Positions 707 to 47,777 of a DNA stretch of 64,000 bases are shown piece after piece (within the stretch, counting starts at the first letter, position 1; the number at the start of each line of letters is the position of its first letter). Under the pieces are notes generated by a model. The model searched no databases. It saw only the letters and a program-made list of their open reading frames with translations, and was not told where the DNA came from. A program made the position numbers and the translations under genes. The stretch is from contig DAISIL010000002.1 in the NCBI GenBank assembly GCA_036822015.1, positions 11,268 to 75,267 on the forward strand, written 5' to 3'. This DNA is from Bernardetiaceae bacterium. GTDB taxonomy: Bacteria; Bacteroidota; Bacteroidia; Cytophagales; Bernardetiaceae.

Positions 707-1682
707 TTTTGTTATGCTCCTTGAGATGGAGAAATACAAAAAACAGTTATCAAAACTCCGCAGAGATAACAAGTTTGGGGGCGCGCCTCATAAGCCCATC
801 CTGCTTATCAGTATTATTGATGCTTTTGATAGCGGCTTCCTTGATTCTCAAATTATCCCCATTAGTCCAGAGCTATTATCGCTTTTCAGAAGTAACTGGA
901 AAAACTACGTTGAGACACCGCATGATTGCCGTTTTGCGCTGCCATTTTATCACATGAAATCAGAACCCTTCTGGAGGCTAGTTCCGAATGAGGGATGCAA
1001 AATTTGGGTTGAGTCTAAATCTTCGATGCAAAGTTTCAATAATCTTATTACGGCAGTAGCATACGCTGAAATTGAGAAAGGTTTGGCTAACCTTTTTTTA
1101 GAGACAAAAACACGTCAGGATTTGAGAGATTTTTTAGTAGCTCTTTACTTTGGTAAAACATCTTCTAATTACCCTGATCTATATGCGCTTGAAAATGTCA
1201 GAAAAGATATTCTGAAAGAGACCTCGGAGGCATATGCCTCTAAGTTGAAATATCTGAAAGAGACCTTATCTCCCGAAGATTACGAAGAGGAGCTATTCGT
1301 GAGAGGAAGTTTATTTAAACGAGAGGTTCCCAAAATCTATAATTTTACTTGTGCCGTTTCTGGGTTGAGGGTGGATACGACTTTTAGTATTTCCATGTTG
1401 GATGCCTGCCACATTGTTCCGTTTAGTGTGAGGGGAGATGATACCATCGGAAACGGTATAGCTCTTTGCCCAAACCTTCACCGAGCGTTTGATAGAGGGA
1501 TCATAACGCTGGATTTCAGTGATTTGCGTGTGAGAACCTCCAAAAGGTTTTCAGAACCACAGGCCGTAAGCTACTCAATCAAACAATTTGAAGGAAAAGA
1601 GATAAAATCTCCCGAGCAGATCAACCTTGAAGTTTTTAGAGCGAATCTGGCATGGCACAACGAAAATGTCTTTATCGGTTGA
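696..1682 (+). CDS. HNH endonuclease-family protein with an uncharacterised ~200-aa N-terminal domain (restriction-like nuclease)
   Basis: C-terminal HNH motif CHIVPFSVRGDDTIGNGIALCPNLHRAFDRG. N-terminal segment GAPHKPILLISIIDAFDSG resembles HNH_2-type restriction proteins. Overlaps the MNT gene by 11 nt. Low GC. Confidence 0.65.
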   Translation: MKNDFVMLLEMEKYKKQLSKLRRDNKFGGAPHKPILLISIIDAFDSGFLDSQIIPISPELLSLFRSNWKNYVETPHDCRFALPFYHMKSEPFWRLVPNEGCKIWVESKSSMQSFNNLITAVAYAEIEKGLANLFLETKTRQDLRDFLVALYFGKTSSNYPDLYALENVRKDILKETSEAYASKLKYLKETLSPEDYEEELFVRGSLFKREVPKIYNFTCAVSGLRVDTTFSISMLDACHIVPFSVRGDDTIGNGIALCPNLHRAFDRGIITLDFSDLRVRTSKRFSEPQAVSYSIKQFEGKEIKSPEQINLEVFRANLAWHNENVFIG

Positions 1683-4037: not shown

Positions 4038-6200
4038 TTAGGGGAGACGCAGCCCCATCCAGAGGATGTCATCTCGGAGGGGTTCTCCTTGCCGGAAGGC
4101 GTTGATGGTTTGTCGGATTTTTTCTTTTTGTTCCGATAGCGGTAGATGCGCTATGGCTTGGGTGAGTTCGAGTAGGCGCAATGTCCCGAACCGCTCTCGG
4201 GCATAGTTGTTTTGGTCGGCAAGTCCGTCGCTTCCCAGGTAGATTACGTCGCTGCTTTGCATCTGTAGTTGTATTTCCTGAAAGTCTATCTTGTTATTGG
4301 TCTGCTTGCGGAGCCGTTGCCCTACGCTGACGTGATCGCAGCGGACACGTGTTACTTCTTTGATAGCAGGGTTGTAATACAGCACGGGGCTTTTGGCCGA
4401 AGCCAGGGCTACGGCGTAGGTGCTGCCTTCTTGTCGCTCAATGCGGATAATGGATACATCCATACCCGTAACACTGCCCGTTGTATTGTGGGGGAGCAGG
4501 TGGCGTACCTCATGGTCGAGTTGGGTCAGGATCCTGCCCGGCGTAAAGATGCGTTCCTCCACCGTGATCTTATCGAGGAGCGTATGCCCAATCAAAGACA
4601 TAAACGCGCCCGGCACACCGTGGCCCGTACAATCGACGGCAGCCACCAAAATACCATCGCCCTCGAGTAGGGGAGTTGCCCAATAAAAATCACCACTGAC
4701 GACATCTTTGGGGGCATAGAGCAGGGCGTAGTCCTCAAAAAAATCAGAGAGGTGTTTGCTCGGTTCTTGCAAGATAGCTTCCTGGATGACCTTAGCGGCT
4801 CGGATGCTGTTATGGATTTGTCGGTTGTTTTCTTCTAAAATACGATGCTGCTCCTGGATGGCATCGCGGTGGGTGCGGATTTCCTCGGCTTGCTGTTGGA
4901 GTTCTTCGTTTTGGGCGAGGACTTCTTGCTGCTTTTGGCGCAACTCGTGGGTGCGTTCGGTTACTTTTTGTTCCAATATGGCGTTTTGGTTGCGTACCAG
5001 TTGCTCGTTTTGGTTGCGGTAAATATTGATGCGATCGGCCAGGGCAAAGGAAAGCAGAACGACTTCGGCCAGCAGCCCAAACTGTACCGCGTTCATGGTA
5101 AAGAAGTTATTCGGAATCTTGCCAATAAACACCATGGACAAAATCAAGACCCCGATCAGGTATAGGAGCCACCCCAACACAAAAAAACGCGCGGCCTTAT
5201 TGCCGCTTCGCCAGGCCACCCAACCATTGATAAGCAGCACCAGCGGCATGACCAAGCCCATCAGCGCGCTCACCTTAGCCGTGTGCGCATAAGAGACCAA
5301 CAAACTCATCACGGCTCCCAAAGCCAATACCCCGCAGACAGCCACCGACAAGCGGTGCATAAAAGGGTAGTTTTTGGAGGTCTTCAAAAAAAGTATCGAA
5401 AACAAAACATTACAACCAAAAACAGCAAAAGTACTAAAGCCAATCACAGGATTGGAGAGCTGGGGCATTCCGGGCCAGAGGTACTGCTGGGCATGACCAC
5501 GCAGGGTAGCCAAAAACAGCAGTGCCAAAAACACCGATAAGCCATAAGCCAGATAGCTACGGTCTCGGAGCGCGTAGCCGAGGCTCAAATTATAGACCGC
5601 CATAATCAGGATGATCCCATAAAAAATCCCGTAAAAAACCTCATTGCCTACCTCCCGCTCATAAAACGAGAGCTTCTCGTGAACGACCAGCGGCACTTGT
5701 ACCGAGCCTGTTGTCTGGATGCGCAGATAAAACACATGCGGATCAGAAGAGGTGAAGCGTAGGGGAAGCACAAACGTTCGGGTAGGTAAGGGACGTGAGG
5801 TAAAGGGCAGCAACTCCCCCGTCTGTACCACCGACCAACTTCCGTCCGAAGTTCGGGCATAAAATGTGAGCGAATCCAGGGGGGGATAGTCAATTTCGAG
5901 GAGCCATTCCATCTCCGAGCGTGCGCGGTTGGTCAAGGGAATGCGCACCCAAAAGGCACTGCTGGGGTTATAGCCGAAATTGAGCTTGTCGGCATCCGAA
6001 GGCACAAAAAGCGACTGAATATCAGGGGAGAGTATCTCCTCAATCCCCGCCTGACGGCCCGTATCCTCCCATACCGATACGTGCCTGCCGATGGACAAAT
6101 ATGGGGTAGATGCGTCCAGGTGCAGATATGGCTGTGCCATCAAAGACGGCCACCAACACAGCAGCAGCATTGCCCACCAAAGTCTATCTCGCTTGCCCAT
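4038..6200 (-). CDS. Membrane sensor serine phosphatase: signal peptide + 7TMR-DISMED2 extracellular domain + 7TM (7TMR-DISM) + coiled coil + PP2C/SpoIIE phosphatase
   Basis: N-terminal secreted domain, seven hydrophobic helices, an NEQL/EELQ coiled coil, and the C-terminal motif YAPKDVVSGDFYW...VDCTGHGVPGAFMS typical of RsbU/SpoIIE PP2C phosphatases. Confidence 0.8.
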   Translation of the reverse strand: MGKRDRLWWAMLLLCWWPSLMAQPYLHLDASTPYLSIGRHVSVWEDTGRQAGIEEILSPDIQSLFVPSDADKLNFGYNPSSAFWVRIPLTNRARSEMEWLLEIDYPPLDSLTFYARTSDGSWSVVQTGELLPFTSRPLPTRTFVLPLRFTSSDPHVFYLRIQTTGSVQVPLVVHEKLSFYEREVGNEVFYGIFYGIILIMAVYNLSLGYALRDRSYLAYGLSVFLALLFLATLRGHAQQYLWPGMPQLSNPVIGFSTFAVFGCNVLFSILFLKTSKNYPFMHRLSVAVCGVLALGAVMSLLVSYAHTAKVSALMGLVMPLVLLINGWVAWRSGNKAARFFVLGWLLYLIGVLILSMVFIGKIPNNFFTMNAVQFGLLAEVVLLSFALADRINIYRNQNEQLVRNQNAILEQKVTERTHELRQKQQEVLAQNEELQQQAEEIRTHRDAIQEQHRILEENNRQIHNSIRAAKVIQEAILQEPSKHLSDFFEDYALLYAPKDVVSGDFYWATPLLEGDGILVAAVDCTGHGVPGAFMSLIGHTLLDKITVEERIFTPGRILTQLDHEVRHLLPHNTTGSVTGMDVSIIRIERQEGSTYAVALASAKSPVLYYNPAIKEVTRVRCDHVSVGQRLRKQTNNKIDFQEIQLQMQSSDVIYLGSDGLADQNNYARERFGTLRLLELTQAIAHLPLSEQKEKIRQTINAFRQGEPLRDDILWMGLRLP

Positions 6201-25121: not shown

Positions 25122-27545
25122 ATGGATCACCTGACCAAAGACTGCTTCATCTCCTATGGCCGCCGCGAAAGCCTTAGTTTTGTGGCGCATCTGCACCGAG
25201 CGTTGGTCTTATCCGGGCATACGGCCTGGTTTGATAAGGTGAACATCCCCGACGGCGAAGCCTATGACCGTCGGATCACGAACGGCATCGAGTCGGCGGA
25301 TAACTTCGTCTCCGTGATGGCTCCCCGCTGCCTGACCTCGCCTTATTGTTTGGTCGAACTCGAGTATGCCCGTGTGCTGGGCAAGCGCATCATCCCCATC
25401 AACCAGATGGTCATCTTCAAGACCGATGCCCAGGAGCTATCCAAAGGCGATCAGGCGGTGCTTGCCAACTTTTATGCCACCCACGGAATGCCCGACGCGG
25501 GTATTCGTACCACCCAGGATGTGCTTGACCGAACGCTTGCCTTGATCGGAACAACGGACTGGCTCGATGGCAAACAAATCCTATCCGACAACGACTGCTT
25601 ACGCCTCCAAGAGTGGGCCCAGAGCTACGAAAACCAATGGCATCGCCACGAAGATACCGCCTATCTAAGCGATCTCCGAATGCCTACCTTTGGGCAAATC
25701 ACGGACCAGATACCCGAAATCCTGGAGCGGATGCTGCTTGTCATTGAACGGCAAAAGACTTACGTACAAGAGCATACACGTATCACCCTCGATGCCCTCC
25801 ACTGGGCAAGCAACCAAAAATCAACCAATTATCTCGCCGTGGGCAAGGAGCGCAAGCAAGCCGAAGACTGGCTCCTGACCGAGTTTACGCCTCCTAAGCA
25901 GCCGCCCTGTACGCCCAGCGACATCTTGTGTGATTTTGTGGTAGAATCCCGAAAGAACGCCGAGAACCGCCACACCGATATTTTTATTTGCTATGCCGCC
26001 GAGGATAAAGCGATCCGAGATCAGGTCATCCGCGCCCTCTCGCGGCACGCCCTGACGACCTGGATACACGATAAGGACATCCAAAAAGGAGCCGAGTATG
26101 GCCGAGCCATTGAGCAGGGCATCGAAGGGGCAGATAACTTTTTCTTCTTCGTCTCGCCCCAGTCGGTCAAGTCCGAGTATTGCCTCAAAGAGCTCAACCA
26201 CGCCATCCTGTACCACAAACGCCTGGTGCCGCTCCTGATTCATTCCACGCCTGAGGCGGATATTCCCGAAGCCTTGCGCGGCTTACAGTACATTGACTTC
26301 ACCGACAACACCACGGAGAGTGATTTTGCCGCCGATCTCGACGACATCCTGAACCTGCTACACCAGGATCACGAGTACTACGAAGAACACAAAATCCTCC
26401 TCAACCGCGCCTTGCGCTGGCAGGAGTCGGGCCGCAAAAATGCGTTTTTGTTGCGCGGCTTTAACCTCGAAAATGCCAAAACCTGGCTACGCCTCCACGA
26501 AAAACGCCAGCAAAATCCGCCCCTGGATATTCATCGCCAACTCATCGAGACCAGCGAAGCCCTCAAAGGACAACTCGGAACGGATGTCTTTGTCTCCTAC
26601 TCCCGCAAAGACGGTGATTTTGCCCGTAAGCTCAACACCCGTCTCCAGGAAGCCGGCAAGACGACCTGGTTCGATCAGGAGAGCATCAGCTCGGGAGTCG
26701 ATTTTGAAAAAGAGATTTACAAAGGTATCGACGGGGCGGATAACATCGTCTTTTTGATCTCCCCAGATTCGATTGCCTCCGAGTACTGCGAACGGGAGGT
26801 AGCCTATGCCGCCCAACTCGGCAAACGCTTCATTACCCTCCTCTGCCGCCCCACCGATCCCCAGATGATGCCCGAAGTCTTGAGGGTCATCAACTGGATC
26901 GACTTTCACAGCAAGGCTTTCGATAAAGTCTTCCCCGAACTCATCCAGGAACTCGACTTAGATCGTGAACACGTTCAGCAGCACACCAAGCTCCAACAAC
27001 GCGCCCTCGAGTGGGCCGAAAACGACCACAGCCCCGATTTCTTGCTCAACGACATGGCCTGCCAGAAAGCCCAGCTTTGGCGCACGGCCGCCACGGAGGG
27101 CAAACCCAAAAACCCACCCCCAACAGCTTTGCAGCAACAGTACATCCAGCAAAGCCTAGAAGCCATTGAGCAAGCCAAAGCACAAGAACGCGCCGTTGCC
27201 CGCTCCCTCAAAAAACGCCTGCGCCTAGCCCGCATCGCGCTCGGCGTGGCAGCCTTGCTTTTGCTTGTGGCTGGCTTTGCGACGACACAAGCACTGATGA
27301 GCGAGAAAAAAGCAGCCTTTGCCCTACAGCAAGCCCTCGAAGCCGAGGAGAAAGCCCACCAAAACGAAATATACGCTATGGCGGCCCTGGATAGTGTCCG
27401 CCAGATTGAGATCGACAAAAAACTCAAGCTGGCCGAGAACTACATCAACTTCGGCGAAAAAGAACTAGCCCAACAGGCACTCGAAGATGTCCTGCGCCTC
27501 GACCCCAACAACACCGATGCCCAACAAAAACAGAAGAGCCTTTGA
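25122..27545 (+). CDS. Membrane-anchored protein with three tandem TIR (TIR_2-type) domains, a C-terminal TM helix and a short TPR/coiled-coil tail
   Basis: Three repeats of the TIR_2 pattern: CFISYGRRESLSFVAHLHRAL...ADNFVSVMAPRCLTSPYCLVELEYA; DIFICYAAEDKAIRDQVIRAL...ADNFFFFVSPQSVKSEYCLKELNHA; DVFVSYSRKDGDFARKLNTRL...ADNIVFLISPDSIASEYCEREVAYA. Each is followed by a conserved helical linker (RALxW...FLLxGxxLxxAxxW). TM helix LARIALGVAALLLLVAGFATTQAL near the C-terminus. Confidence 0.75.
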   Translation: MDHLTKDCFISYGRRESLSFVAHLHRALVLSGHTAWFDKVNIPDGEAYDRRITNGIESADNFVSVMAPRCLTSPYCLVELEYARVLGKRIIPINQMVIFKTDAQELSKGDQAVLANFYATHGMPDAGIRTTQDVLDRTLALIGTTDWLDGKQILSDNDCLRLQEWAQSYENQWHRHEDTAYLSDLRMPTFGQITDQIPEILERMLLVIERQKTYVQEHTRITLDALHWASNQKSTNYLAVGKERKQAEDWLLTEFTPPKQPPCTPSDILCDFVVESRKNAENRHTDIFICYAAEDKAIRDQVIRALSRHALTTWIHDKDIQKGAEYGRAIEQGIEGADNFFFFVSPQSVKSEYCLKELNHAILYHKRLVPLLIHSTPEADIPEALRGLQYIDFTDNTTESDFAADLDDILNLLHQDHEYYEEHKILLNRALRWQESGRKNAFLLRGFNLENAKTWLRLHEKRQQNPPLDIHRQLIETSEALKGQLGTDVFVSYSRKDGDFARKLNTRLQEAGKTTWFDQESISSGVDFEKEIYKGIDGADNIVFLISPDSIASEYCEREVAYAAQLGKRFITLLCRPTDPQMMPEVLRVINWIDFHSKAFDKVFPELIQELDLDREHVQQHTKLQQRALEWAENDHSPDFLLNDMACQKAQLWRTAATEGKPKNPPPTALQQQYIQQSLEAIEQAKAQERAVARSLKKRLRLARIALGVAALLLLVAGFATTQALMSEKKAAFALQQALEAEEKAHQNEIYAMAALDSVRQIEIDKKLKLAENYINFGEKELAQQALEDVLRLDPNNTDAQQKQKSL

Positions 27546-30008: not shown

Positions 30009-30743
30009 ATGGATAAGATACTGATTGTGGAGGATAACAAGCTGACCTATAACAATCTTGCGGCAGAGCTAGAAGATGCCGGCTATCAAGTCATGGACTA
30101 CACGCCCACAGGAGAACTCGCCCTCGAGCGGCTGGAGGAAAATCCCGATTTGGTGGTGTTGGATATTCAGTTGGCGGGCAAACTGAACGGTATTGCTGTT
30201 GCTCGGGCGATAGGGGAGCGTTTTTCGATACCCTTTATCTATTTGAGTTCTTACACCGAAAAGATGAACCAAGCCAAAAGCACCGCGCCCTTTGCCTTCC
30301 TGCCCAAGCCCGTTTCGGGAGAGGAACTCGAGCAAAAAATACGGGAATTACTCCTGGCTTGTAAGCAGTTACGCGGGAAAGACAAAAGGGAGGTCGCTGA
30401 TACGGCATCCGTCTTTTTCCCGAAGCGCAACGAAAAAGTACGCATTCGCCTCTCCGATATACAGTTTGTCGAGGCCGAGTCTCATCATGTGCTGCTGCAC
30501 ACCGATCAGCAGCGGCACGCGATCAGTCAGACGCTCCAAGAACTCCTCGATCACATCAGCGGATCTGTGCCGAACCATGGGCTGCTGCGCGTCCATCGCT
30601 CTTATCTGGTCAATATCAGCCGCATCGCTTCTGTGAAGGGAAGCACCCGCAATTATACGCTTTTGGTGGAGGGATGTCCCAAAGAAATCCCCGTTGGGCG
30701 TAGCTACGAAGCCCAAATGCTAATCGTGATGGGCTTGAAATAA
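30009..30743 (+). CDS. LytTR-family response regulator (REC + LytTR DNA-binding domain); orphan, with no adjacent kinase
   Basis: REC motifs ILIVEDN...VLDIQL...KP. C-terminal LytTR block VRIRLSDIQFVEAESHHVLLHT...LRVHRSYLVNISRI. Confidence 0.85.
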   Translation: MDKILIVEDNKLTYNNLAAELEDAGYQVMDYTPTGELALERLEENPDLVVLDIQLAGKLNGIAVARAIGERFSIPFIYLSSYTEKMNQAKSTAPFAFLPKPVSGEELEQKIRELLLACKQLRGKDKREVADTASVFFPKRNEKVRIRLSDIQFVEAESHHVLLHTDQQRHAISQTLQELLDHISGSVPNHGLLRVHRSYLVNISRIASVKGSTRNYTLLVEGCPKEIPVGRSYEAQMLIVMGLK

Positions 30744-30794
30744 CCTTTGGCGAAGTTCTTGCGTAAGGGAAAGTGTATCAAAAACACTAAGCCC

Positions 30795-33242
30795 ATGTCC
30801 GATTCCAACCGCGAGCGCGATCTCGTCCTGGCTCCCAACGAGTACGCCTTCATCTCTGACCAAACCAAAGGCAACATCAACGTCTATGTGGGGCCCTACA
30901 AAACCAGCCTAGCCAACACCGACAAGCCCGTTGCGTTCGATGACCAAAGCAAGCGTTTCTTGCGCTGCTCCCTCGATGAATCCACGCAGACCTTTACCGT
31001 AGCCCCCGAGGGCTGGTATATCATCCTCAAAAACCCACCCAAGCACGGCGATCAACCCAAAAACGGCACCAACAACAGCCTAGCCGAGCTCAACGTAGGC
31101 CGTAAGATCAACATCCCGGGACCGAAGCACTTTGCGCTCTGGCCAGGGCAGATGGTGCGCGTCGTGAGAGGGCATCATTTGCGCTCCAACCAATACCTGG
31201 TCGTTCGGGTCTATGACGAGGAAGAAGCCCGCCAAAACTGGGGCAAGGCCGTCATCAAGACCAAAAACGAAGAAAAAAACGATCAGCCCCTGACAGCGGA
31301 AGAAATCCCCGACTTAACCATGGGCAAGACCTTGATTATTAAAGGTGATGCTGTTTCGTTTTACATTCCCCCGACGGGTGTGGAGGTCGTCCGAGAGACC
31401 AACGGGGAGTACGTCCGGGAGGCCGTTACGCTCGAGCGGCTCGAGTACTGCATCCTTCTGGAGGAGGACGGCAACAAGCGGTTCATTCAGGGGCCGGCCG
31501 TCGTTTTTCCCAAACCCACGGAGGAGTTTGTGCAGCGCAACGGCTCCCGTAAGTTTTTGTCCATTGAGCTAAACGAGATGAGTGGCTTGTATATCAAGGT
31601 GATCGCTCCCTACACCGAGGACGGCAAGACCTACAAAGAAGGCGACGAGTTGTTTATCACCGGCAAAGAACAGATGATCTATTACCCGCGCCCCGAACAC
31701 GCAATCATCAAGTATGGCAAGCGCGAAAAACACTTTGCCGTAGCCATCCCCGACGGCGAAGGACGCTACTACCTCAATCGAAAGACGGGCAAGGTAGCCC
31801 TCCAGCGCGGCCCGGCCATGTTTCTGCCCGACCCACGGGCGTTTGTTTTGGTGAGGCGCATCCTCGAAGAGAAGCAGGTGCAGTTGTGGTTTCCGGGCAA
31901 CGAAGAAGCCCTCCGCTACAACAAAGCCCTGCAACAGATCGCCAAAAGCCCCCAAGAAAAATACGTCGCCGCACAGGAGGTCGATCAATCTCCCAAAATG
32001 GCCGTTGGGGCAGCACCCATGCCAGAGGTGCGCAAACGCGAGAAACCCTCCAAAGAGGTAGCCAGTGAGGAGTTTGAGCGCGGCGAAAGCTATACCCCTC
32101 CCCGAACGGTTACTCTGGACAACAAATACGACGGTGCCGTAACGATCAATGTCTGGACGGGATACGCCATCCTGGTCGTGAGCAAGACCGGCAAACGCAA
32201 GGTCATCACGGGGCCGCACACCTACCTGCTCGAGTACGACGAGACTCTCGAAGCCATGACGCTCTCCACGGGAACACCCAAGACAGAAGAAAACCCACTC
32301 CGAACGGTCTATTTGCGCGTTCTTCACAACCGAATTTCGGATGTCATCCTGGCCGAGTCGTCAGATTTTACGCAAGTTTCGCTGACGCTTTCGTATCGGG
32401 TCAATTTTGAGGGGGAAGCGGAGAAGTGGTTTAATGTTGAAAATTTTGTTAAATTCTTGACCGATCATCTCCGTTCCTTTGTCCGTAATGTGGTCAAGAA
32501 GCATACGATCATGGATTTTTATGCCAAAGGCGTGGATATTTTGCGGGATGCCATTTTGGGTGTTTCCGAAGGAGGCAAACGTCCCGGGCGGCTTTTTGAG
32601 GAAAACGGTATGCGCATCTACGATGTAGAGGTTTTGAATGTCCACCTGACCGACAAGAGCATTGAGCAGCTCCTGATCTCGGCCCAGCAGGAGGTCGTCA
32701 AGCAGACCTTGCGCATCGAAGCCGAAAAACGCAAGTTGGAGTTTACCCAATCGAGCGAGCAGATCGCGCAGCAGATCGCCAAAACCGAATCGGAGACCAA
32801 ACAAAACGCCTTCGGTCTCCAGATTCAGGAAGCCCAAAAGGAACTCGAACTCACCCTGGCACAACTCCAAAAGGTCATCCAGGAGGAGGAAGCCCAGCTC
32901 CAGGCACGCCTGGCCCAGCAGCAAAGCCTCAACGCCATCACGACGGCAGAGATCGAACGCCAACGCCAGCGCGAAGCCCAGACGCTCGAAACACAACAAG
33001 CCCAGCTCCAACAGCAGCTTACCTTGCTCAAAGGAGAAGTGGAGGCAACGGTCAGCAAAGCCCAGGCGATCTCCCCCGATTTGATCGCGGCCATGCAGGC
33101 TTTCTCCGACAAAGCCCTGGCCCAAAAGATGGCCGACTCGATGGCACCTTTGGCCATCCTGGGTGGGCGTAGCGTAGCCGATGTTTTTGCGCAGCTCCTC
33201 AAAGGCTCGGGCATCGAACACGTTTTGCAGCAAAACCCGTAA
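30795..33242 (+). CDS. Bacterial homolog of the major vault protein (MVP): N-terminal MVP repeat domains + SPFH-like shoulder domain + C-terminal cap-helix coiled coil
   Basis: N-terminus LVLAPNEYAFISDQTKGNINVYVGPYK parallels vertebrate MVP [27 protein letters not shown]. Shoulder region NGMRIYDVEVLNVHLTDKSIEQLLISAQQEVVKQTLRIEAE parallels [36 protein letters not shown]. Long Q/E/A-rich coiled coil follows. Length 816 aa versus ~860 aa for eukaryotic MVP. ATG at 30795 preferred; the tracked TTG is at 30747. Confidence 0.8.
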   Translation: MSDSNRERDLVLAPNEYAFISDQTKGNINVYVGPYKTSLANTDKPVAFDDQSKRFLRCSLDESTQTFTVAPEGWYIILKNPPKHGDQPKNGTNNSLAELNVGRKINIPGPKHFALWPGQMVRVVRGHHLRSNQYLVVRVYDEEEARQNWGKAVIKTKNEEKNDQPLTAEEIPDLTMGKTLIIKGDAVSFYIPPTGVEVVRETNGEYVREAVTLERLEYCILLEEDGNKRFIQGPAVVFPKPTEEFVQRNGSRKFLSIELNEMSGLYIKVIAPYTEDGKTYKEGDELFITGKEQMIYYPRPEHAIIKYGKREKHFAVAIPDGEGRYYLNRKTGKVALQRGPAMFLPDPRAFVLVRRILEEKQVQLWFPGNEEALRYNKALQQIAKSPQEKYVAAQEVDQSPKMAVGAAPMPEVRKREKPSKEVASEEFERGESYTPPRTVTLDNKYDGAVTINVWTGYAILVVSKTGKRKVITGPHTYLLEYDETLEAMTLSTGTPKTEENPLRTVYLRVLHNRISDVILAESSDFTQVSLTLSYRVNFEGEAEKWFNVENFVKFLTDHLRSFVRNVVKKHTIMDFYAKGVDILRDAILGVSEGGKRPGRLFEENGMRIYDVEVLNVHLTDKSIEQLLISAQQEVVKQTLRIEAEKRKLEFTQSSEQIAQQIAKTESETKQNAFGLQIQEAQKELELTLAQLQKVIQEEEAQLQARLAQQQSLNAITTAEIERQRQREAQTLETQQAQLQQQLTLLKGEVEATVSKAQAISPDLIAAMQAFSDKALAQKMADSMAPLAILGGRSVADVFAQLLKGSGIEHVLQQNP

Positions 33243-40830: not shown

Positions 40831-41769
40831 ATGGAGCAGATTCTGATTTCTGTGGTCAGTCCCGTGTATCGTGCCGAGCAGATCATAGATTTGCTGGTAC
40901 AGCGCATCAGCACCGAACTCGAACAGATCACGCCACACTTCGAGATCATCCTGGTAGAGGACGGCAGCCCTGACGGCTCCTGGCAAAAAATCGCCGAAAA
41001 CTGCCAACGCGATCCGCGCGTTAAGGGCATCAAGTTAAGCCGAAATTTTGGGCAGCATTATGCCATTACGGCGGGTCTGACCGCAGCCCGAGGGGAGATA
41101 ACCATCCTGATGGACTGTGATTTACAGGATGATCCGGCGCACATTCATCGCTTGCTTGCCGAGCAGCAAAAGGGCTACGAAATTGTATTTACGAAACGGA
41201 TCAAGCGTAAGCACTCTTTTTTTAAGGCAATTACGGCAAAGATATACAACGCTTTGTTTTTATTGTTTTCCGATAAGAAATATGACATTAACGTAGGTTC
41301 GCTGGTGCTATTTACCAAGAAAGTACGACAGCATTTTGTGCGCATCAAAGACAAAGATCGTTTGTACATTCAAATTTTGAAATGGTTGGGTTTTGCTCAC
41401 ACCTACATCTATGTAGAGCATCGCGAAAGAGCCGAAGGTGTATCTACCTACTCCTTTTTGAAGCTCCTAAAAATTGCCGTTCAGGGTTGGACATCTCATT
41501 CGGATAAACTGCTCCGTTTGTCCATCTATCTGGGATTTTTCTTATCCTTTCTGTCTTTTTTGGGGATATTCTTGATCGTAACGCTTTATTTTTGGCAGGG
41601 ATTTCAGTCAGGGTGGGCTAGCCTGGCAGTCCTGAACTTATTTTCTACGGGAATTATTCTGATCTGTATTGGCATTGCGGGTTTGTATATCGGTAAGACT
41701 TTTGAGCAGTCAAAGCATAAGCCTTTGTTTATCATAGATGAAGTATTAAATACAAAAATAGATGACTAA
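40831..41769 (+). CDS. GT2-family polyprenyl-phosphate sugar transferase (GtrB/ArnC/DPM1-like) with two C-terminal TM helices
   Basis: ISVVSPVYRAEQ...IILVEDGSPDGS...LMDCDLQDDP are the GT2 DXD-region motifs. C-terminal hydrophobic pair LSIYLGFFLSFLSFLGIFLIV and ILICIGIAGLYIG. Confidence 0.75.
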   Translation: MEQILISVVSPVYRAEQIIDLLVQRISTELEQITPHFEIILVEDGSPDGSWQKIAENCQRDPRVKGIKLSRNFGQHYAITAGLTAARGEITILMDCDLQDDPAHIHRLLAEQQKGYEIVFTKRIKRKHSFFKAITAKIYNALFLLFSDKKYDINVGSLVLFTKKVRQHFVRIKDKDRLYIQILKWLGFAHTYIYVEHRERAEGVSTYSFLKLLKIAVQGWTSHSDKLLRLSIYLGFFLSFLSFLGIFLIVTLYFWQGFQSGWASLAVLNLFSTGIILICIGIAGLYIGKTFEQSKHKPLFIIDEVLNTKIDD

Positions 41770-42454
41770 AAAAATAATTATTACACAGTCTAATTACATT
41801 CCTTGGAAGGGCTATTTTGATGCCATCCAGTACGTCGATGAAGTAATTCTTTATGATGATATGCAATACACCAAACGCGACTGGCGCAACCGCAACCAAA
41901 TCAAGACTCCACAAGGATTGCTTTGGTTGAGTATTCCAGTAGCGGTGAAGGGGAAATACTTTCAAGCCATCCAGGATACACAGGTGAGCGATCTCGGATG
42001 GGCCAGCAAGCACTGGAAAACGATCCAAGCCAATTACGCCAAAGCAAAATTTTTTAAAGATTATCAAGACATCTTCGAGGATTTATACTTAGATTGCCGA
42101 GAAAGCTATTTGAGCCAAGTCAATTTGCGTTTTATTCTGGGTATCAACAAGATGTTGGGCATCACAACACCGATACGCTTCTCGTCAGATTTTGTACTTG
42201 TTGAGGGCAAAACAGAACGTCTCGTAGATTTGTGCAAGCGGGTAGATGCCACCGATTACTACACCGGTAGTGCCGCCCAAAACTACATGGACGAATCCCT
42301 CTTTACGCAAGAAAACATTCGGGTACATTACTGGGACTACGCTGGCTATCCCGAGTACGAACAGCTATACCCACCTTTTGCGCATAATGTGTCTATCATT
42401 GATTTGATCTTGAACCAAGGAGAAAACAGCAGAAATTTTATGAAGTATTTGTAG
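41762..42454 (+). CDS. WbqC-family protein (LPS/O-antigen biosynthesis-associated, function unknown)
   Basis: IITQSNYIPWKGYFDAIQYVDEVILYDDMQYTKRDWRNRNQI is the characteristic WbqC N-terminus. Low GC. Overlaps the upstream gene by 8 nt. Confidence 0.6.
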   Translation: MTKKIIITQSNYIPWKGYFDAIQYVDEVILYDDMQYTKRDWRNRNQIKTPQGLLWLSIPVAVKGKYFQAIQDTQVSDLGWASKHWKTIQANYAKAKFFKDYQDIFEDLYLDCRESYLSQVNLRFILGINKMLGITTPIRFSSDFVLVEGKTERLVDLCKRVDATDYYTGSAAQNYMDESLFTQENIRVHYWDYAGYPEYEQLYPPFAHNVSIIDLILNQGENSRNFMKYL

Positions 42455-42458
42455 ATGT

Positions 42459-43091
42459 ATGGAAAAGCAACAAATCATCCGATCAGTAGCCGACTATTAC
42501 ACGGAAAAGCTCGCAGAACACGGCCCTACGCCAAGAGGGGTCGATTGGAACTCGGCAGATTCCCAGGAGCTTCGTTTTCGGCAACTCTTACAAGTGATCT
42601 CTGATGCTACTTCAACGACCTCTATCCTGGATTATGGCTGTGGCTTTGGTGCTATGTTTTCATTTATAGAGCAACACTTATCGAAAAACATACGCTTTTT
42701 TGGGTATGATATTTCCAAAAATATGATTCAGCAGGCAGAAAAACTTTATGGGGATCGGACGAATGCCATTTGGCTATCCGAGTTGAAAAATCAGGAAAAG
42801 ATGGATTATCTCGTATCGAGTGGGATTTTTAACGTTCGTCTGCAACACCAAAACACGGATTGGAAAGCCTACATTCTCGATGTTTTGCACCAATTTGACC
42901 AGTTGAGTACCAAAGGATTTGCATTTAATATGCTGACTGCCTATTCAGATAAGCCGTATATGAAGGATTATTTGTATTATGCTGATCCTATGTTTTTCTT
43001 TGATTACTGTAAGCAAAATTTTTCTCCTTATGTAGCCTTACTTCACGATTATCCACTTTATGAATTTACAATTTTAGTAAGAAAACAATAA
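42459..43091 (+). CDS. SAM-dependent methyltransferase (class I)
   Basis: ILDYGCGFGAM is the SAM-binding motif I. Low GC. Confidence 0.55.
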   Translation: MEKQQIIRSVADYYTEKLAEHGPTPRGVDWNSADSQELRFRQLLQVISDATSTTSILDYGCGFGAMFSFIEQHLSKNIRFFGYDISKNMIQQAEKLYGDRTNAIWLSELKNQEKMDYLVSSGIFNVRLQHQNTDWKAYILDVLHQFDQLSTKGFAFNMLTAYSDKPYMKDYLYYADPMFFFDYCKQNFSPYVALLHDYPLYEFTILVRKQ

Positions 43092-43858
43092 TGAATATCA
43101 TTGCTTGCATCGATCATCAGATAGGCTATAGGTTAGCCGTCCAGTTGATTCAACTACAAAAATTAGGGGAAATAACTAACTTATGGTTATACACCAACCC
43201 AAGGCCAGCAGAAGCATTCTGGGATGATTGTTTTTACTTAAAAGAAGTATATACTTTTGAAAATATATTTGCTTTTAATAACGATCAAGAAATAATAAAG
43301 CATACAAAAAATTATGTTATTGATTATATATTTTTGTTGTCATGGAAGCATTTGGTGTCAAAGGAACTTATAGAACATTCGCAAAAAGGTTGTATCAATC
43401 TTCATTACAGCCTTTTGCCAAAATTTCGCGGGGTTTATCCTGTTAATTGGGCGATTATCAACGGAGAAAAAGAGACAGGTCTTACTTTTCACTTTGTGAA
43501 TCAAGGCATAGATGCAGGTGATATTATTTTGCAAAGAAAACTAAGTATATCACTTACCGAAACAGCTAAGTGCCTACTCGAGCGATTAGATGATTTAGCT
43601 GAACAGGCATTTAGGGAGTTGTGGGATATGATAAAGTCATACCAGACCTTACCACGAAGACCACAAACCATTGTTGCGGATTACTATTCAAGAAAACGAT
43701 TCTTGCAAATCTGTCAGCTATCTTTAACAGAAACTGTTACTGGTGGGGAGTTGCTAAACCTCTTACGTGGAACAACCTTCGGTGCGCAATCAAATCTCTA
43801 TTTTCTCGACGAAAAACAGCAGAAAGTGTATATCACGATTCAATTTCACCCAGAATAA
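43091..43858 (+). CDS. Formyltransferase (sugar N-formyltransferase-like, Formyl_trans_N family)
   Basis: INLHYSLLPKFRGVYPVNWAIINGEKETGLTFHFVNQGIDAGDII contains the formyltransferase catalytic motif (H-x-SLLP-x-x-RG ... N ... D). Too short to be Fmt/PurN with their extra domains, and sits in sugar-modification context. Confidence 0.7.
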   Translation: MNIIACIDHQIGYRLAVQLIQLQKLGEITNLWLYTNPRPAEAFWDDCFYLKEVYTFENIFAFNNDQEIIKHTKNYVIDYIFLLSWKHLVSKELIEHSQKGCINLHYSLLPKFRGVYPVNWAIINGEKETGLTFHFVNQGIDAGDIILQRKLSISLTETAKCLLERLDDLAEQAFRELWDMIKSYQTLPRRPQTIVADYYSRKRFLQICQLSLTETVTGGELLNLLRGTTFGAQSNLYFLDEKQQKVYITIQFHPE

Positions 43859-44691
43859 TGGCTGATACGATGCAATACATCGACAACATCAAGTGCTACG
43901 CCCCAGAGCTAGCCCATGCCAACGCAGATTACCCTGTCGAGGCTTTTGAGGAACTGTATAAAATTGAAACAGAAAATTTCTGGTTTTTTTCCCGTAATGC
44001 CGTTTTGCAGCATCTGTTCAAAAAATATCTCGGCACAGATCAGAAACATATCCTCGAGATCGGCTGTGGGACGGGCTTTGTACTGCATGGCTTATCCCAG
44101 AAGTTTCCCAACTATGTGCTTTCAGGATCGGAGATACACGTAGCTGGGATACATTTTGCTCAAAAACGCTTGCCCGAGGTTGAGTTTGTGCAGTTGGATG
44201 CTACCCGGATGCCATTTACGGATACTTTTGATGCCGTGGGCGCTTTTGATGTATTGGAGCATATTGAAGAAGATGTTCAGGTAATGAAAGAAGTTCAGAA
44301 GTCTTTAAAAAAAGAGGGTTTATTTTTTATTTCCGTTCCTCAATATCAGTGGATGTGGAGCATCGCCGATGATGTTGCCTATCACAAACGCCGCTACACG
44401 CGCCAGATGCTCGGTACACGCCTCCGCGAAGCGGGCTTTGAGGTGCTATACATGGGGTCTTTTGTGGCCACGCTTTTCCCGCTCATGTATGCCTCACGTC
44501 TGCTCAAGCGCAGGCACACAGGTAAGCTCACCGAAGCCGAGGCAAGGGCTTTATCCATGCAAGAATTGCAACTTTCACCAACACTCAATGCTATTTTGCG
44601 CCAACTGATGCGCATAGATGAGGGGTTGATTAAGAAAAATGTATCTTTACCCTTTGGTGGCTCGTTGCTTGCCGTAGCCCGAAAAAAATAA
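43858..44691 (+). CDS. Class I SAM-dependent methyltransferase
   Basis: ILEIGCGTGF motif I, and FDAVGAFDVLEHI motif. ATG at 43858 overlaps the upstream stop (TAATG). Confidence 0.65.
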   Translation: MADTMQYIDNIKCYAPELAHANADYPVEAFEELYKIETENFWFFSRNAVLQHLFKKYLGTDQKHILEIGCGTGFVLHGLSQKFPNYVLSGSEIHVAGIHFAQKRLPEVEFVQLDATRMPFTDTFDAVGAFDVLEHIEEDVQVMKEVQKSLKKEGLFFISVPQYQWMWSIADDVAYHKRRYTRQMLGTRLREAGFEVLYMGSFVATLFPLMYASRLLKRRHTGKLTEAEARALSMQELQLSPTLNAILRQLMRIDEGLIKKNVSLPFGGSLLAVARKK

Positions 44692-44712
44692 AAAACTATT
44701 GATCGACTGCTT

Positions 44713-45846
44713 ATGAACGTTCCCTTTAATCTCCCCTACATGACCGGACGGGAGTCCGAGTATATCCAGGCGGCCGTCGCCTCCGGCAAAATTTCGGGGG
44801 ACGGGGTATTTACCCACAAGTGTCATGCGTTTTTTGAGCAGCGTTACAGTTTTCCCAAGTGCCTCCTGACGACCTCCTGCACCGATGCGCTCGAGATGTG
44901 CGCCCTGCTCCTGGATATCAAGTCCGGCGACGAGGTCATTGCCCCGAGTTATACCTTTGTCAGTACCGTTAATGCTTTCGTTCTACGGGGTGCAAAAATT
45001 GTCTTTGCTGATAGCGAAGCCAACACGCCCAATATGGATATTTCAAAAATTGAATCTTTGATTACGCCGCGTACGAAGGTAATCGTTGTTGTGCATTATG
45101 CCGGTGTGGCTTGTGATATGGATGCCGTGATGGCACTGGCTGAGCGGTATGGTTTGTTTGTGGTGGAGGATGCAGCCCAGGCAGTAGATAGTTTTTACAA
45201 GGATCGTCCGTTGGGGAGCATAGGACATCTGGCGGCTTTTTCGTTCCACGAAACCAAAAATATCATCAGCGGAGAAGGTGGAATGCTGGTCGTCAATGAT
45301 GAACAATTCGCCAAACGCGCCGAAATTATCCGCGAAAAAGGGACAAATCGCAGTGCTTTTTTTCGGGGAGAGGTGGACAAATACGGCTGGGTGGATGTAG
45401 GTTCTTCCTTTTTGCCTTCGGATATTATTGCTGCTTTTCTTTTTGCACAACTCGAAAATCTTGCTGATATTCAGGCATGTAGAAAGCAAATCTGGCAGCG
45501 TTATTACGAGGCGTTCAGACCTTTGGCAGAGCAGGGACACCTCCGTTTGCCGCACTTACCCGACTACGCCCACAACAACGGGCATCTGTTCTTTGTCCTC
45601 TGCCGAGACCTCGAAGAACGGACGGCACTCATACAGCACCTCAAGGCAGCGGGCATCTGGGCCGTTTTTCATTATCTGGCTTTGCATCAGTCGCCGTTTT
45701 ACAAAGACCAGCATGACGGCCGGACGCTGCCCTACTGTGAGCAGTACGCGGACGGATTGGTACGGCTGCCACTTTTTTATCAAATCACGGAAGCGCAGCA
45801 GTCCAGGGTCATAGATGCTGTCTATGAATTTTTTGATAAAAAATGA
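44713..45846 (+). CDS. DegT/DnrJ/EryC1-family sugar aminotransferase, WecE-like (dTDP-4-keto-6-deoxyhexose 4-aminotransferase)
   Basis: Near end-to-end motif identity with E. coli WecE: PSYTFVSTVNAFVLRGAKIVF, VHYAGVACDMD, FVVEDAAQA, FSFHETKN, REKGTNRS-FFRG-VDKY-W-D-GSS, VFHY-LH. Confidence 0.85.
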   Translation: MNVPFNLPYMTGRESEYIQAAVASGKISGDGVFTHKCHAFFEQRYSFPKCLLTTSCTDALEMCALLLDIKSGDEVIAPSYTFVSTVNAFVLRGAKIVFADSEANTPNMDISKIESLITPRTKVIVVVHYAGVACDMDAVMALAERYGLFVVEDAAQAVDSFYKDRPLGSIGHLAAFSFHETKNIISGEGGMLVVNDEQFAKRAEIIREKGTNRSAFFRGEVDKYGWVDVGSSFLPSDIIAAFLFAQLENLADIQACRKQIWQRYYEAFRPLAEQGHLRLPHLPDYAHNNGHLFFVLCRDLEERTALIQHLKAAGIWAVFHYLALHQSPFYKDQHDGRTLPYCEQYADGLVRLPLFYQITEAQQSRVIDAVYEFFDKK

Positions 45847-47777
45847 TACTCATGGCGTTTTTAGAAAATTATTTCTTTTTTGTTGTAACTTTATCTTTCT
45901 TTTATTTTATTGGAGCTTTGCCCGCCTGGCTTTACCGCCGATTTATTCCGCACCAGATGGCGGATATTTTTACGGCGCTTGTTCTGGGGCAGGGGATTTT
46001 GGTTACGGGCTATGCCTTGTTCAAGACCGAAGGACAGACGATGTTTGTGTTGGCTGTGCCGTTTTTGTGGTGGGCATATCGCGTATGGCTTCTCCAGGAA
46101 CGCCCATTTAGCGGCTCCTCTAGCCGATGGACGATTCCTTTGCTGCTTTTGTTTTCTTTGGTTGTTTATGGCTGGGAGGCTTTCTTTTTTCTTGATGAAG
46201 CAGGGGCAGGACAGATAGTTTTTACAGATTTAAATTTTTATGCGCGTGTAGCCAATGCCATGCGTCTGGTCGGCTTGGAAAGCATCAAAGCACAGTTTTA
46301 TTTCCTAGATCCGACGCTTAGCCCGGGCATTGACTTGTATCACTTTTACGAACTATGGCTAACTGCTTTATCCATAGATATTTGGAATCTGCCCCCAAAC
46401 TATGCTTATCTCTTGGTGGCCATGCCGAGCATTTATTTTATTTCGTTGCTGGGGCTTTACGCGCTCCTGGAGTGCTATGCTGCGGAGGTGAAGCCCTGGC
46501 TATTTGCTGGCTTGGCGATTTTGTTGTTGTTCGTAAAAGGTATTCATTTTGATTTTTATGAATCCAACCGATTGATGCAATATTCCACGTACCTGTTGTA
46601 CGAACAACTGCTCTGGAAAAAAGTATCCGTTTATCAGCCCTTGATACTACTGGCCATGATTTGGTTCAGCCGTCGCAATTTCAAGCAAGGGTTGATATTG
46701 CTTTTTTTATTACCGATCTATGCCATCACCACTTTTCCAGCAATTTCGGGCGCGGCCCTGATCTTGTGGTTGGCTTTGTGGTACTGGCGACGGCTATCCC
46801 TCCGGCAGATGCTCTGGGGCATAGGAGCGGTAGGTTTGTATCTGTTTGTTTTTTTGCTTTGGTATCAAGAACTAAAAACAGTATCCTCCCTTACGCCTAA
46901 AACAGCACTAGATACACTTTTCCAATTTGATTTGGGGACACTCAAAACGAAAGTTTCATTTTTTGTCGGGACGCTCATCAAAACCGTACTACTTTATCTG
47001 CCTTTTTTCCTCATTCCCTTACTTTGGGTTCGACCGTATGCACTCGTGAAGGCACATAAGGAGACTTGGCTTTGGTTGGTTGGGCTGTTTGCGAGTGGAT
47101 TGCTTACCTGGGCGATACTCTACGGTATGGATCAGGTCCGGCAGCTACATCTACACACGGCCGCCATTGCCTGGATGCTTGCTGCGGCCCTGACTGCCAT
47201 GCACGTCTGGGAAAGCCAACGTGGAAGATGGGCTTTTTTGGTAGTCTTTGTAGGTTTAGCTATGTTTAATGTTTATGATAGTTTCCAAAAACAACGTTAC
47301 TTTATTCAGTCAGAGACGCTTAGATACACTACAGATTATCTCCTACAAATCAAAACCAGCCTGCCTCAAAACCGACTTTGTTATGGGGTGTCGATCACTG
47401 CTCCGGAAGAGTATCCTCGGCTCAAGCAGGGCTATACACCACACATGATGCAGCGCGGCGAGTATCTGAGCAACTTTTACACCCAAACGATGACCTATCA
47501 GATGGATAACTTTCTGGAGGCAATGAAATATGTACCCAACTACCGCACCCAGGATTTGCTTTATTTGCCTTTTTATCGCTTCGTTGAACGCCAAAAAGCG
47601 GCTGGTACTTTTCTGGACATCCCGAGCAGCCAGGCGGACTTTTTTTTGACGCATAAGTTTGACTATCTCATTGCTTCTCCCGAGGCTGTTGTCCCGAAAG
47701 CTATCCGCCAAAGGGCTAAGCGCGTCCTGACCGATCCCAAAAGTGGTGAACGTTTTTTTATCTTTGTCCCGCTATGA
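45843..47777 (+). CDS. Large polytopic membrane protein, candidate GT-C-type glycosyltransferase (ArnT/GtrC/PMT-like) - uncharacterised
   Basis: About 12 hydrophobic helices over the first ~470 aa and a ~170-aa soluble C-terminal domain. Sits at the end of a GtrB/ArnC-like GT2 operon. No motif-level confirmation is possible by eye. Confidence 0.5.
   Translation: MILMAFLENYFFFVVTLSFFYFIGALPAWLYRRFIPHQMADIFTALVLGQGILVTGYALFKTEGQTMFVLAVPFLWWAYRVWLLQERPFSGSSSRWTIPLLLLFSLVVYGWEAFFFLDEAGAGQIVFTDLNFYARVANAMRLVGLESIKAQFYFLDPTLSPGIDLYHFYELWLTALSIDIWNLPPNYAYLLVAMPSIYFISLLGLYALLECYAAEVKPWLFAGLAILLLFVKGIHFDFYESNRLMQYSTYLLYEQLLWKKVSVYQPLILLAMIWFSRRNFKQGLILLFLLPIYAITTFPAISGAALILWLALWYWRRLSLRQMLWGIGAVGLYLFVFLLWYQELKTVSSLTPKTALDTLFQFDLGTLKTKVSFFVGTLIKTVLLYLPFFLIPLLWVRPYALVKAHKETWLWLVGLFASGLLTWAILYGMDQVRQLHLHTAAIAWMLAAALTAMHVWESQRGRWAFLVVFVGLAMFNVYDSFQKQRYFIQSETLRYTTDYLLQIKTSLPQNRLCYGVSITAPEEYPRLKQGYTPHMMQRGEYLSNFYTQTMTYQMDNFLEAMKYVPNYRTQDLLYLPFYRFVERQKAAGTFLDIPSSQADFFLTHKFDYLIASPEAVVPKAIRQRAKRVLTDPKSGERFFIFVPL

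Follow-up and report, generated by a model that had tools for sequence, protein, structure and literature searches.

A stretch of 64,000 nucleotides from the metagenome-assembled genome (MAG) of a Bernardetiaceae bacterium (assembly GCA_036822015.1, contig DAISIL010000002.1, positions 11,268 to 75,267 of the forward strand; hereafter the window, numbered from its first letter) contains a gene for a protein with three tandem TIR domains and a membrane anchor. The complete open reading frame (ORF) lies at 25122..27545 (+), starts with ATG, ends with TGA and encodes 807 amino acids; the NCBI entry MGF1533726.1 (MAG Bernardetiaceae bacterium) names the product 'toll/interleukin-1 receptor domain-containing protein'. 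At the domain level it is an ordinary TIR_2 protein and is already annotated so. Judged by its sequence and that of its relatives, however, it represents the short-tail version of a large family of receptor-like proteins, in which cytoplasmic TIR arrays are joined through one transmembrane helix to highly variable domains predicted to lie outside the cytoplasm.

A reading made from the sequence only, without database searches, had proposed three consecutive TIR_2 domains sharing start, core and glutamate motifs, a conserved helical linker after each, a single C-terminal transmembrane helix, and no fused NTPase or sensor. Each of these elements was recovered. In hidden Markov model (HMM) searches, Pfam TIR_2 (PF13676) matched three stretches of the protein at 241.6 bits (cutoff 28, E=2.3e-72), as did Pfam TIR (PF01582) at 66.6 bits (cutoff 21.3), and fold matches agree. 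All features are on the + strand. TIR domain 1 spans residues ~5-210 (25134..25751; Pfam TIR_2, repeat alignment, AlphaFold2), TIR domain 2 residues ~283-414 (25968..26363; Pfam, PDB match, AlphaFold2) and TIR domain 3 residues ~485-612 (26574..26957; Pfam, SARM1 alignment, AlphaFold2). In a three-way alignment, the three units begin with KDCFISY, TDIFICY and TDVFVSY, respectively (pattern D-x-F-[IV]-[SC]-Y), continue with the core motifs ADNFVSVMAP, ADNFFFFVSP and ADNIVFLISP, and carry the glutamate motifs SPYCLVE79L, SEYCLKE357L and SEYCERE559V (pattern S-x-Y-C-x-x-E-[LV]), so that the glutamate position is retained in all three. The earlier description did not include a helical insertion of ~100 amino acids (residues ~95-196) inside TIR1, which separates the domain core (residues 5-94) from its last helix (197-209) in the AlphaFold2 secondary structure and the repeat alignment.

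The repeated unit is larger than the TIR domain. Units 2 and 3 align over 196 amino acids with 32% identity (E=3e-35); the TIR part of unit 1 matches units 2 and 3 with E=3e-16 and 5e-20, and its linker part, aligned separately, with E=6e-5 and 5e-7. The helical linker of ~70-85 residues that follows each TIR contains two spaced tryptophans, and its motif A(L)xW...(F/Y)L(L/A)x(G/D)...A..W occurs three times, once per unit. Linker 1 (residues ~211-282, 25752..25967; repeat alignment, AlphaFold2) carries W228/W250, linker 2 (residues ~415-484, 26364..26573; alignment, AlphaFold2, linker HMM) reads RALRW433...FLLRG446...AKTW455, and linker 3 (residues ~613-699, 26958..27218) carries W631/W653, its last helix being continuous with the transmembrane helix. 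The pairs W228/W250, W433/W455 and W631/W653 are invariant across the 73 homologous sequences described below. Neither the individual linkers nor a set of 22 linker sequences had a Pfam match, and matches of a linker HMM were confined to TIR proteins in related loci, bar one marginal hit (E=0.011). A likeness of the linker to RNase H was considered and dismissed as not credible, the linker profile having reached a best E of only 1.4 against the PDB. The linker is an uncharacterised, family-specific module.

Beyond linker 3 the protein has a single strong hydrophobic segment, LRLARIALGVAALLLLVAGFATT, at residues ~700-722 (27219..27287), with a Kyte-Doolittle (KD) value of 2.3. The basic cluster KKRLRLAR stands just before it, at the end of linker 3, on the predicted cytoplasmic face (hydropathy, charge bias). 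The remaining residues 723-807 (27288..27542) form a predicted extracytoplasmic tail, a long helix rich in Ala, Glu, Lys and Gln followed by a hairpin resembling tetratricopeptide repeats (TPRs), for which TPR matches stay below threshold (TPR_8 E=6e-4, 20.2 bits, cutoff 25.7). Pfam, NCBIfam and PADLOC scans of the protein returned no NTPase domain and no recognisable sensor domain.

An AlphaFold2 model built with 72 homologs has a mean predicted local distance difference test score (pLDDT) of 91.8 and a predicted TM-score (pTM) of 0.81, and comprises three TIR folds with helical linkers. A long helix (669-721) covers the end of linker 3 and the membrane segment; it is followed by a hinge modelled with low confidence (717-732), a second long helix (729-776) and a helical hairpin. 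In Foldseek searches against the PDB, single TIRs matched Hydra TRR-2, MyD88, SARM1, AbTir and the SPARTA TIR-APAZ protein with TM-scores of 0.72-0.83, the score to target being 0.80-0.83 for the TIRs of TRR-2, MyD88 and AbTir, and the best PDB sequence match of TIR2 was likewise the Hydra TRR-2 TIR (3.7e-7). No structural counterpart of the whole chain was found among the Foldseek PDB matches. Full-length matches to SARM1 chains were set aside, as their TM-scores of 0.14-0.18 are meaningless past the TIR.

Two features of catalytic TIRs, a glutamate in a (W/Y)xxxE motif and a BB-loop glycine that assembly and activity require, are both present. In a phmmer alignment to SARM1, E559 of TIR3 (26796-26798) falls on the catalytic E642 and G525 (26694-26696) on the BB-loop glycine G601, while E79 (25356-25358), E357 (26190-26192) and E559 occupy one column of the internal repeat alignment. 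Conservation was counted over 73 collinear sequences, that is, the window protein and 72 homologs that are 38-73% identical to it. The glutamate is kept in 73/73 (E79), 68/73 (E357) and 73/73 (E559), and the BB-loop glycine in 69/73 (G45 of TIR1, 25254-25256, by alignment), 50/73 (G323 of TIR2) and 69/73 (G525). The TIR1 core is the most conserved segment, with a mean identity of 71%. On these counts TIR1 and TIR3 look fully enzyme-like and TIR2 somewhat relaxed. Neither of the outcomes that the earlier reading had named as refuting it, failure of HMM support or loss of the glutamate from all three repeats, was observed.

The same residues bear on the possibility that the array is not an enzyme at all but a scaffold or adaptor, whose TIRs would act as interaction modules and recruit TIR or signalling proteins to the membrane as in the Toll-like receptor (TLR)/MyD88 pathway. 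The best PDB sequence and fold matches do include Hydra TRR-2, MyD88 and TLR1, and the relaxed conservation of the glutamate and glycine in TIR2 points the same way. However, that E79 and E559 never vary in 73/73 sequences from three phyla is hard to explain without catalysis, the glutamate is retained in almost every unit of arrays of 5-9 TIRs, no further TIR-coding region exists elsewhere in the 64-kb window, and no conserved partner was found. Because the glutamate is invariant, a purely adaptor role is unlikely, and we consider it very improbable.

The relatives of the protein are numerous. A word-indexed search returned 251 related proteins at E<=1e-5, an exhaustive search of 50%-identity cluster representatives returned 1,234 at E<=1e-30 (the 150th best at 500 bits), and at least 378 related stretches were found in species genomes, with one genome per species. 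The family can be defined by at least two TIR units with Trp-pair linkers and a transmembrane helix ~110 amino acids after the last TIR, in collinear order, and the window protein has this organization. Architectures were surveyed in the 120 best-scoring matches. Exactly three TIRs occur in 102 of them, one strong transmembrane helix ~105-120 residues after the last TIR is found in virtually all members of sufficient length, and no strongly hydrophobic segment (KD of at least 2.0 averaged across 19 residues) lies within the TIR region, bar one in P0071 at 1.96. The triple-TIR, membrane-anchored layout that the earlier reading had called unusual is thus the commonest form within a very large family.

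The number of units and the region beyond the membrane are where members diverge. TIR-linker units in the related loci number 2, 3, 4, 5, 7, 8 or 9, with 3 the modal value. The longest array, a 2,637-aa protein, has nine units (L055:6494-14407), and other giant relatives belonging to the group with 9, 8 and 7 units are encoded at L060:6830-14332, L015:9986-16435, L018:909-6230 and L022:893-7045, with one transmembrane helix after the last unit. A single such helix follows each multi-unit array, bar a four-TIR protein (L064) with further hydrophobic segments, and the glutamate of a [YWF]CxxE motif persists in nearly every unit. After the helix, the 120 best matches carry 0 to ~780 residues that differ in kind: WD40 beta-propellers in about 30, FGE-sulfatase domains in 10, DM9 repeats in 8, leucine-rich repeats (LRRs) with WG repeats in 5, CHASE8 in 2, dCache_1 in 1, RDD plus pilin in 1, and also short helical tails resembling that of the window protein. 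Identity to the window protein falls from 46-71% in the cytoplasmic module to 20% in the transmembrane helix and 16% beyond it. The earlier remark that no sensor is present therefore holds for the short-tail subgroup and fails for most relatives, which have large variable domains after the helix. Since relatives carry sensor modules beyond the membrane or in the next gene, it makes more sense to view the protein as the signalling chassis within a receptor-like family than as an effector complete in itself on an anchor. We found no description of a bacterial family with an ectodomain-transmembrane-poly-TIR layout in the full-text literature searched, whose coverage leaves out most subscription journals, and two reviews list the ectodomain-transmembrane-TIR layout for animals only (PMC9153377, PMC7075850).

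A single-pass inner-membrane topology with the N-terminus inside and the C-terminus outside (N-in/C-out) is predicted from several properties of the family. No signal peptide was found on the TIR region. Lys and Arg counted within 15 residues either side of the transmembrane helix in 104 proteins number on average 5.4 N-terminal to the helix and 2.45 C-terminal to it, the N side having the excess in 93/104. The members with dCache_1 and CHASE8 have a second transmembrane helix after the sensor domain, and a sensor flanked by two such helices is the usual layout for periplasmic sensors. Also, at two loci of the LRR type where the sensor is a separate protein (L001/L002 and L087), that protein has an N-terminal signal peptide. 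Of the 60 residues following the helix, 46% are Ala, Glu, Lys or Gln, as compared with 28% in the cytoplasmic part, which suggests a coiled-coil-like stalk.

These separate proteins are a characteristic of the short-tail subgroup. The closest relatives of the window protein, P0004 and P0005, are about 70-73% identical to it and share its tail, which is 59% identical to that of P0004 and conserved only in the closest short-tail relatives. Truncation as an artefact was rejected as the origin of the short tail, since a TGA closes the ORF 10 nt from the convergent MscS gene and both P0004 and P0005 conserve this tail. At the P0004 locus (L001/L002) the next gene begins 4 nt downstream (L001:7544-10387), and its 947-aa product combines a signal peptide and a WG repeat with about 20 LRRs and with TPRs at the C-terminus; next to P0005 (L087:8467-11529) lies a gene for a 1,020-aa homolog of this partner, 46% identical. 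Both partners have an N-terminal 'CEAF...TPR-like' module. At two further loci (L089:8497-10185; L033:3920-5107) the downstream protein has an FGE-sulfatase domain. All four genes are co-directional with the short-tail poly-TIR gene, and all four products match fused ectodomains of long members (BLASTP E 1e-34 to 1e-85). The sensor thus seems to come as a polypeptide of its own in 4/6 distinct short-tail relatives with enough downstream DNA, the L008 and L010 loci having no downstream sensor-type gene. The LRR and FGE-sulfatase partners had no tblastn match anywhere in the 64-kb window. Elsewhere in the MAG, a search for the LRR partner yielded an abundance of generic LRR proteins.

Gene neighbourhoods and hosts were examined for the best 80 related loci among the at least 378 found. 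Within the window, a universal stress protein gene lies upstream of the TIR gene, the gene for the C-terminal subunit of transketolase precedes it by 21 nt on the same strand, and an MscS gene converges on it, 10 nt from its TGA; further downstream are genes for a histidine phosphatase, a DAHP-synthase-family (KdsA-type) enzyme, a LytTR response regulator and a protein resembling the major vault protein (MVP). When nine window neighbours were searched by tblastn against 86 related loci, none recurred, bar a gene resembling thioredoxin reductase in L038 and a weak match to an ABC transporter in L071. When 724 ORFs from the 80 loci were clustered all against all, no conserved neighbour gene emerged: the clusters that recurred were of generic kinds (response-regulator GGDEF/EAL, ABC ATPase, SpoIIE, inositol phosphatase), and the sole recurring feature was the presence of adjacent paralogs (17 additional copies). 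Defence-type genes stand beside some members, namely AbiEi/AbiEii in L001 and, in L005, an LSDAT(SLOG)-SLATT protein with AAA_15/AAA_21 ATPase genes downstream. In the latter locus, the LSDAT(SLOG)-SLATT gene (L005:1-1213) and a second paralog, a 1,774-aa protein with three TIRs and WD40 (L005:1879-7203; also in L006), lie directly upstream of P0010.

This last arrangement is pertinent to the main rival explanation, namely that the array would serve to make a nucleotide signal for an unlinked effector. As in Thoeris, the TIRs would make a messenger derived from ADP-ribose (ADPR), such as a cyclic ADPR isomer, His-ADPR or similar, which would activate an effector encoded elsewhere. The LSDAT(SLOG)-SLATT class is predicted to form a nucleotide-gated pore (Kaur et al., 2020; PMC7159879), so that the protein beside the two paralogs at this Beggiatoaceae-type locus is a possible pore partner for one locus type, and the window protein gives partial matches to ThsB-type TIRs (PF08937, 2.6e-9; PADLOC ThsB models; NCBIfam ThcB4, 73.9 bits). 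However, the ThcB4 score is well under its cutoff of 220, the SLATT association was seen in one locus alone, no neighbour is conserved across the 80 loci, and no ThsA, SIR2, SLOG, Macro or SLATT gene occurs in the 64-kb window. We regard messenger production as improbable.

The main host lineages are largely filamentous gliding bacteria. The 80 loci comprise 22 from Beggiatoaceae and other Thiotrichales, 35 from Cytophagales and other Bacteroidota, 9 from filamentous cyanobacteria and 1 from an unclassified Pseudomonadota MAG, the remaining assignments being considered below. Copy number can be high: among the matches listed, one Parabeggiatoa MAG holds at least 7 copies, one Thioploca MAG at least 6, and Flexithrix dorotheae 3. 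Some copies in Bernardetia, Chondrinema, Kovacikia and Tolypothrix are plasmid-borne.

Such a distribution could also be expected of a developmental or physiological regulator, in which an envelope or cell-contact sensor would cleave NAD+ locally and thereby serve stress responses or programmed cell death in filaments, for example in sacrificial cells or filament breakage. Besides the dominance of filamentous gliding bacteria, the housekeeping context of the gene both in the window and in Bernardetia litoralis (homolog WP_014797337.1 in strain DSM 6794), and its position 21 nt after a transketolase-subunit gene on the same strand, are in keeping with a physiological role. On the other hand, genomes hold many divergent paralogs whose ectodomains (LRR, WD40, FGE-sulfatase, DM9 lectin) are hypervariable, which resembles a repertoire for recognition more than one developmental switch, some copies adjoin defence-type genes (AbiE in L001; the ATPases and SLATT in L005), and some are on plasmids. 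Overall, we hold a developmental function to be unlikely.

Several other genes of the window deserve mention in their own right. The MVP-like protein (831 aa; 30747-33242, +) matches MVP_shoulder (4.6e-29) and Vault_3 (5e-8), and its gene comes directly after that of the LytTR response regulator (30009-30743, +), ~3.2 kb downstream of the TIR gene. A TIR-like NAD+-cleaving enzyme (NADase) was reported in eukaryotic vaults in 2026; a link between the MVP-like and TIR genes was nevertheless discarded as coincidence, since there was no synteny in 86 related loci. The region 41762-47777 has a low GC content (0.39 at 42-44 kb against ~0.53 overall) and encodes WbqC, three S-adenosylmethionine methyltransferases, a DegT/DnrJ aminotransferase and a protein of 644 aa that Pfam does not match; it has the look of a cluster for modifying surface glycans and was possibly acquired horizontally. 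Further, a protein with an HNH_2 endonuclease domain is encoded at 696-1682 (+) within the low-GC first 2 kb (GC 0.44), and a 7TMR-DISM receptor fused to a SpoIIE/PP2C phosphatase at 4038-6200 (-).

Taken together, we judge it about an even call that the window protein is a receptor-like NAD+-cleaving effector in N-in/C-out orientation that is activated by clustering from outside the cell. In such a system ~700 cytoplasmic residues, arranged as three units of TIR and helical linker, would be held at the membrane with an 85-aa helical tail outside, and three parts could be distinguished: the TIR array as output, the transmembrane helix and stalk as transmitter, and an extracytoplasmic domain or secreted partner as input. 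The array would be the NAD+-cleaving effector; what the alignments themselves contain is the glutamate kept in three TIRs and the BB-loop glycine kept in TIR1 and TIR3. In SARM1, AbTir, TIR-STING, TIR-SAVED and SPARTA, head-to-tail TIR-TIR contacts complete the active site (10.64898/2026.05.01.722283). Because known TIR enzymes need these contacts, we infer that the helical linkers hold the TIRs of a resting monomer inactive, and that clustering or rearrangement of the transmembrane helix and stalk would bring the TIRs of neighbouring chains head-to-tail into a composite active site. By analogy with the relatives, the trigger would be an external or envelope cue, read by a fused ectodomain or, in short-tail members, by an LRR/TPR or FGE-sulfatase partner that is secreted separately and may attach to the tail. 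As no conserved downstream effector gene was found, NAD+ depletion with growth arrest or death of the affected cell would be the simplest output, and cell sacrifice would suit the filamentous, multicellular lifestyle of most host lineages.

A number of observations weigh against this proposal. NADase activity, its products, the topology and oligomerisation are predictions. In the window protein itself there is no sensor domain, and no partner gene adjoins the window gene. TIR2 is the least constrained of the TIRs, with the glutamate lost in 5/73 sequences and a variable BB-loop glycine, and not every TIR unit need be catalytic. The window gene is surrounded by housekeeping genes (for a transketolase subunit, MscS, Usp and a KdsA-type synthase), and a PADLOC scan of the 47 window ORFs besides the TIR gene gave what appear to be generic domain-level matches (mad3, 5e-33; mad2, 1.8e-15, in two ORFs; mad8, JetC2, SduA and ShosT/PsyrT) and no defence partner; there is thus no guilt-by-association support for an immune role. 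Finally, 13 of the best 80 loci stem from MAGs labelled Roseobacteraceae, Thalassovita or Thalassobius, which are non-filamentous taxa (L027, L031, L033, L035, L043, L054, L056, L061, L064, L068, L077, L081 and L084). These labels are doubtful because the loci have a GC of 0.34-0.50, which suggests that the assemblies are mislabelled or mis-binned.

To our knowledge, the known bacterial TIR systems (Thoeris, CBASS and Pycsar effectors, SPARTA, TIR-STAND) sense intracellular events. LRR, WD40, lectin and Cache domains on the predicted outer side would instead couple surveillance of the cell exterior to NAD+ chemistry, as in animal Toll-like receptors, and such logic would here be found mainly in bacteria of filamentous, multicellular habit. 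In a bolder version, which we advance only tentatively, the family would be a bacterial counterpart of the Toll-like receptors, arisen by convergence or module sharing: transmembrane pattern-recognition receptors that trigger an NADase filament and kill the cell for the benefit of the filament of cells, with short-tail members as common signalling chains for secreted sensors. If so, the LRR, WD40, FGE-sulfatase, DM9 and Cache ectodomains would read cues from phage, predators, neighbouring cells or envelope damage, and receptor clustering would zip covalently pre-linked poly-TIR chains into the active NADase filament. The covalent 3-9-mer TIR arrays would also be a natural testing ground for the control of activation by TIR-TIR geometry. 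For annotation, a bare 'TIR domain-containing protein' gains a defined architecture, a predicted topology and a division into subfamilies with fused, split or orphan sensors.

The earlier comparison of the protein with Thoeris, cyclic-oligonucleotide-based anti-phage signalling systems (CBASS) and STAND proteins stands at the domain level, and it does not extend further: full-length NCBIfam and PADLOC models were not matched, and partner genes are lacking. For Thoeris, the likeness to ThsB/ThcB is confined to domain-level HMMs (PF08937, PADLOC ThsB1, NF058526); the PADLOC ThsB matches cover TIR-domain stretches only, NF058526 being the ThcB4 model noted above. No ThsA-type partner (SIR2/SLOG, Macro-TM) occurs in the window or as a conserved neighbour, and the architecture is wholly different. 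TIR effectors of CBASS, Pycsar and type III CRISPR systems have a fused nucleotide sensor (SAVED, STING, cNMP-binding or CARF) and a cyclase gene nearby; in the window protein the PADLOC SAVED_TIR matches are limited to the TIR part (profile positions 14-93 of 404), and there is no cyclase gene in the neighbourhood of the window gene. STAND/NLR proteins are defined by a central NB-ARC, NACHT or nSTAND NTPase, set between TIR and repeats, which the window protein lacks. The wider TIR-STAND/NTPase conflict systems (Kaur, Burroughs, Iyer & Aravind 2020, PMC7159879) share with the family a host range of cyanobacteria and other multicellular or filamentous bacteria, and the combination of a TIR effector with a sensor repertoire of WD40, FGS/FGE-sulfatase, TPR and LRR. 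The family differs from them in having no NTPase (STAND, MoxR, GTPase) in the protein or in a conserved neighbour, in iterating the TIR with its own linker, and in placing a transmembrane helix between effector and sensors, so that the sensors are predicted to lie outside the cytoplasm.

Closer parallels exist among membrane-bound TIR proteins and TIR enzymes. In a 2026 preprint (PMC13142454), Dictyostelium TirC is described as a TIR NADase on a single hydrophobic helix, and the tether is proposed to restrain its activity; unlike the window family, TirC is a eukaryotic protein with one TIR and an N-terminal helix, derived from bacterial TIRs of the TIR-STING type, and has no ectodomain family. 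Animal Toll-like receptors have in common with the family an ectodomain (with LRRs in some members), a single transmembrane helix and cytoplasmic TIRs, which are in tandem in some mollusc Tolls (PMC4929906). By definition they are type I proteins with LRRs at the N-terminus, followed by a transmembrane helix and one C-terminal TIR, whereas the order in the window protein is three TIRs, transmembrane helix and tail. The family is thus reversed (type II), with N-terminal TIRs and a C-terminal ectodomain; it has 3-9 TIRs rather than 1-2, and its catalytic glutamate is strictly conserved. LRRs are absent from the window protein, and its LRR relatives carry the repeats C-terminal of the transmembrane helix. 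We found no evidence of common descent with Toll-like receptors beyond the TIR and LRR superfamilies.

The TIR fold is common to SARM1/TIR-1, AbTir, TIR-STING, TIR-SAVED/Cat1 and the SPARTA TIR-APAZ protein (TM-scores of 0.72-0.80), and the catalytic glutamate and BB-loop glycine of SARM1-type NADases align with those of TIR3 (E559/E642, G525/G601). In contrast to SARM1 and the bacterial TIR NADases, to which identity is ~23-25%, the window protein combines three TIRs per chain with family-specific linkers and a C-terminal transmembrane anchor, and has no ARM/SAM, STING, SAVED or Argonaute partner. Those enzymes cleave NAD+ upon oligomerisation, and the same logic would be expected of the window protein. 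Among known systems, it would work most like an oligomerisation-gated TIR NADase, and its family appears to be laid out most like a Toll-like receptor of reversed polarity.

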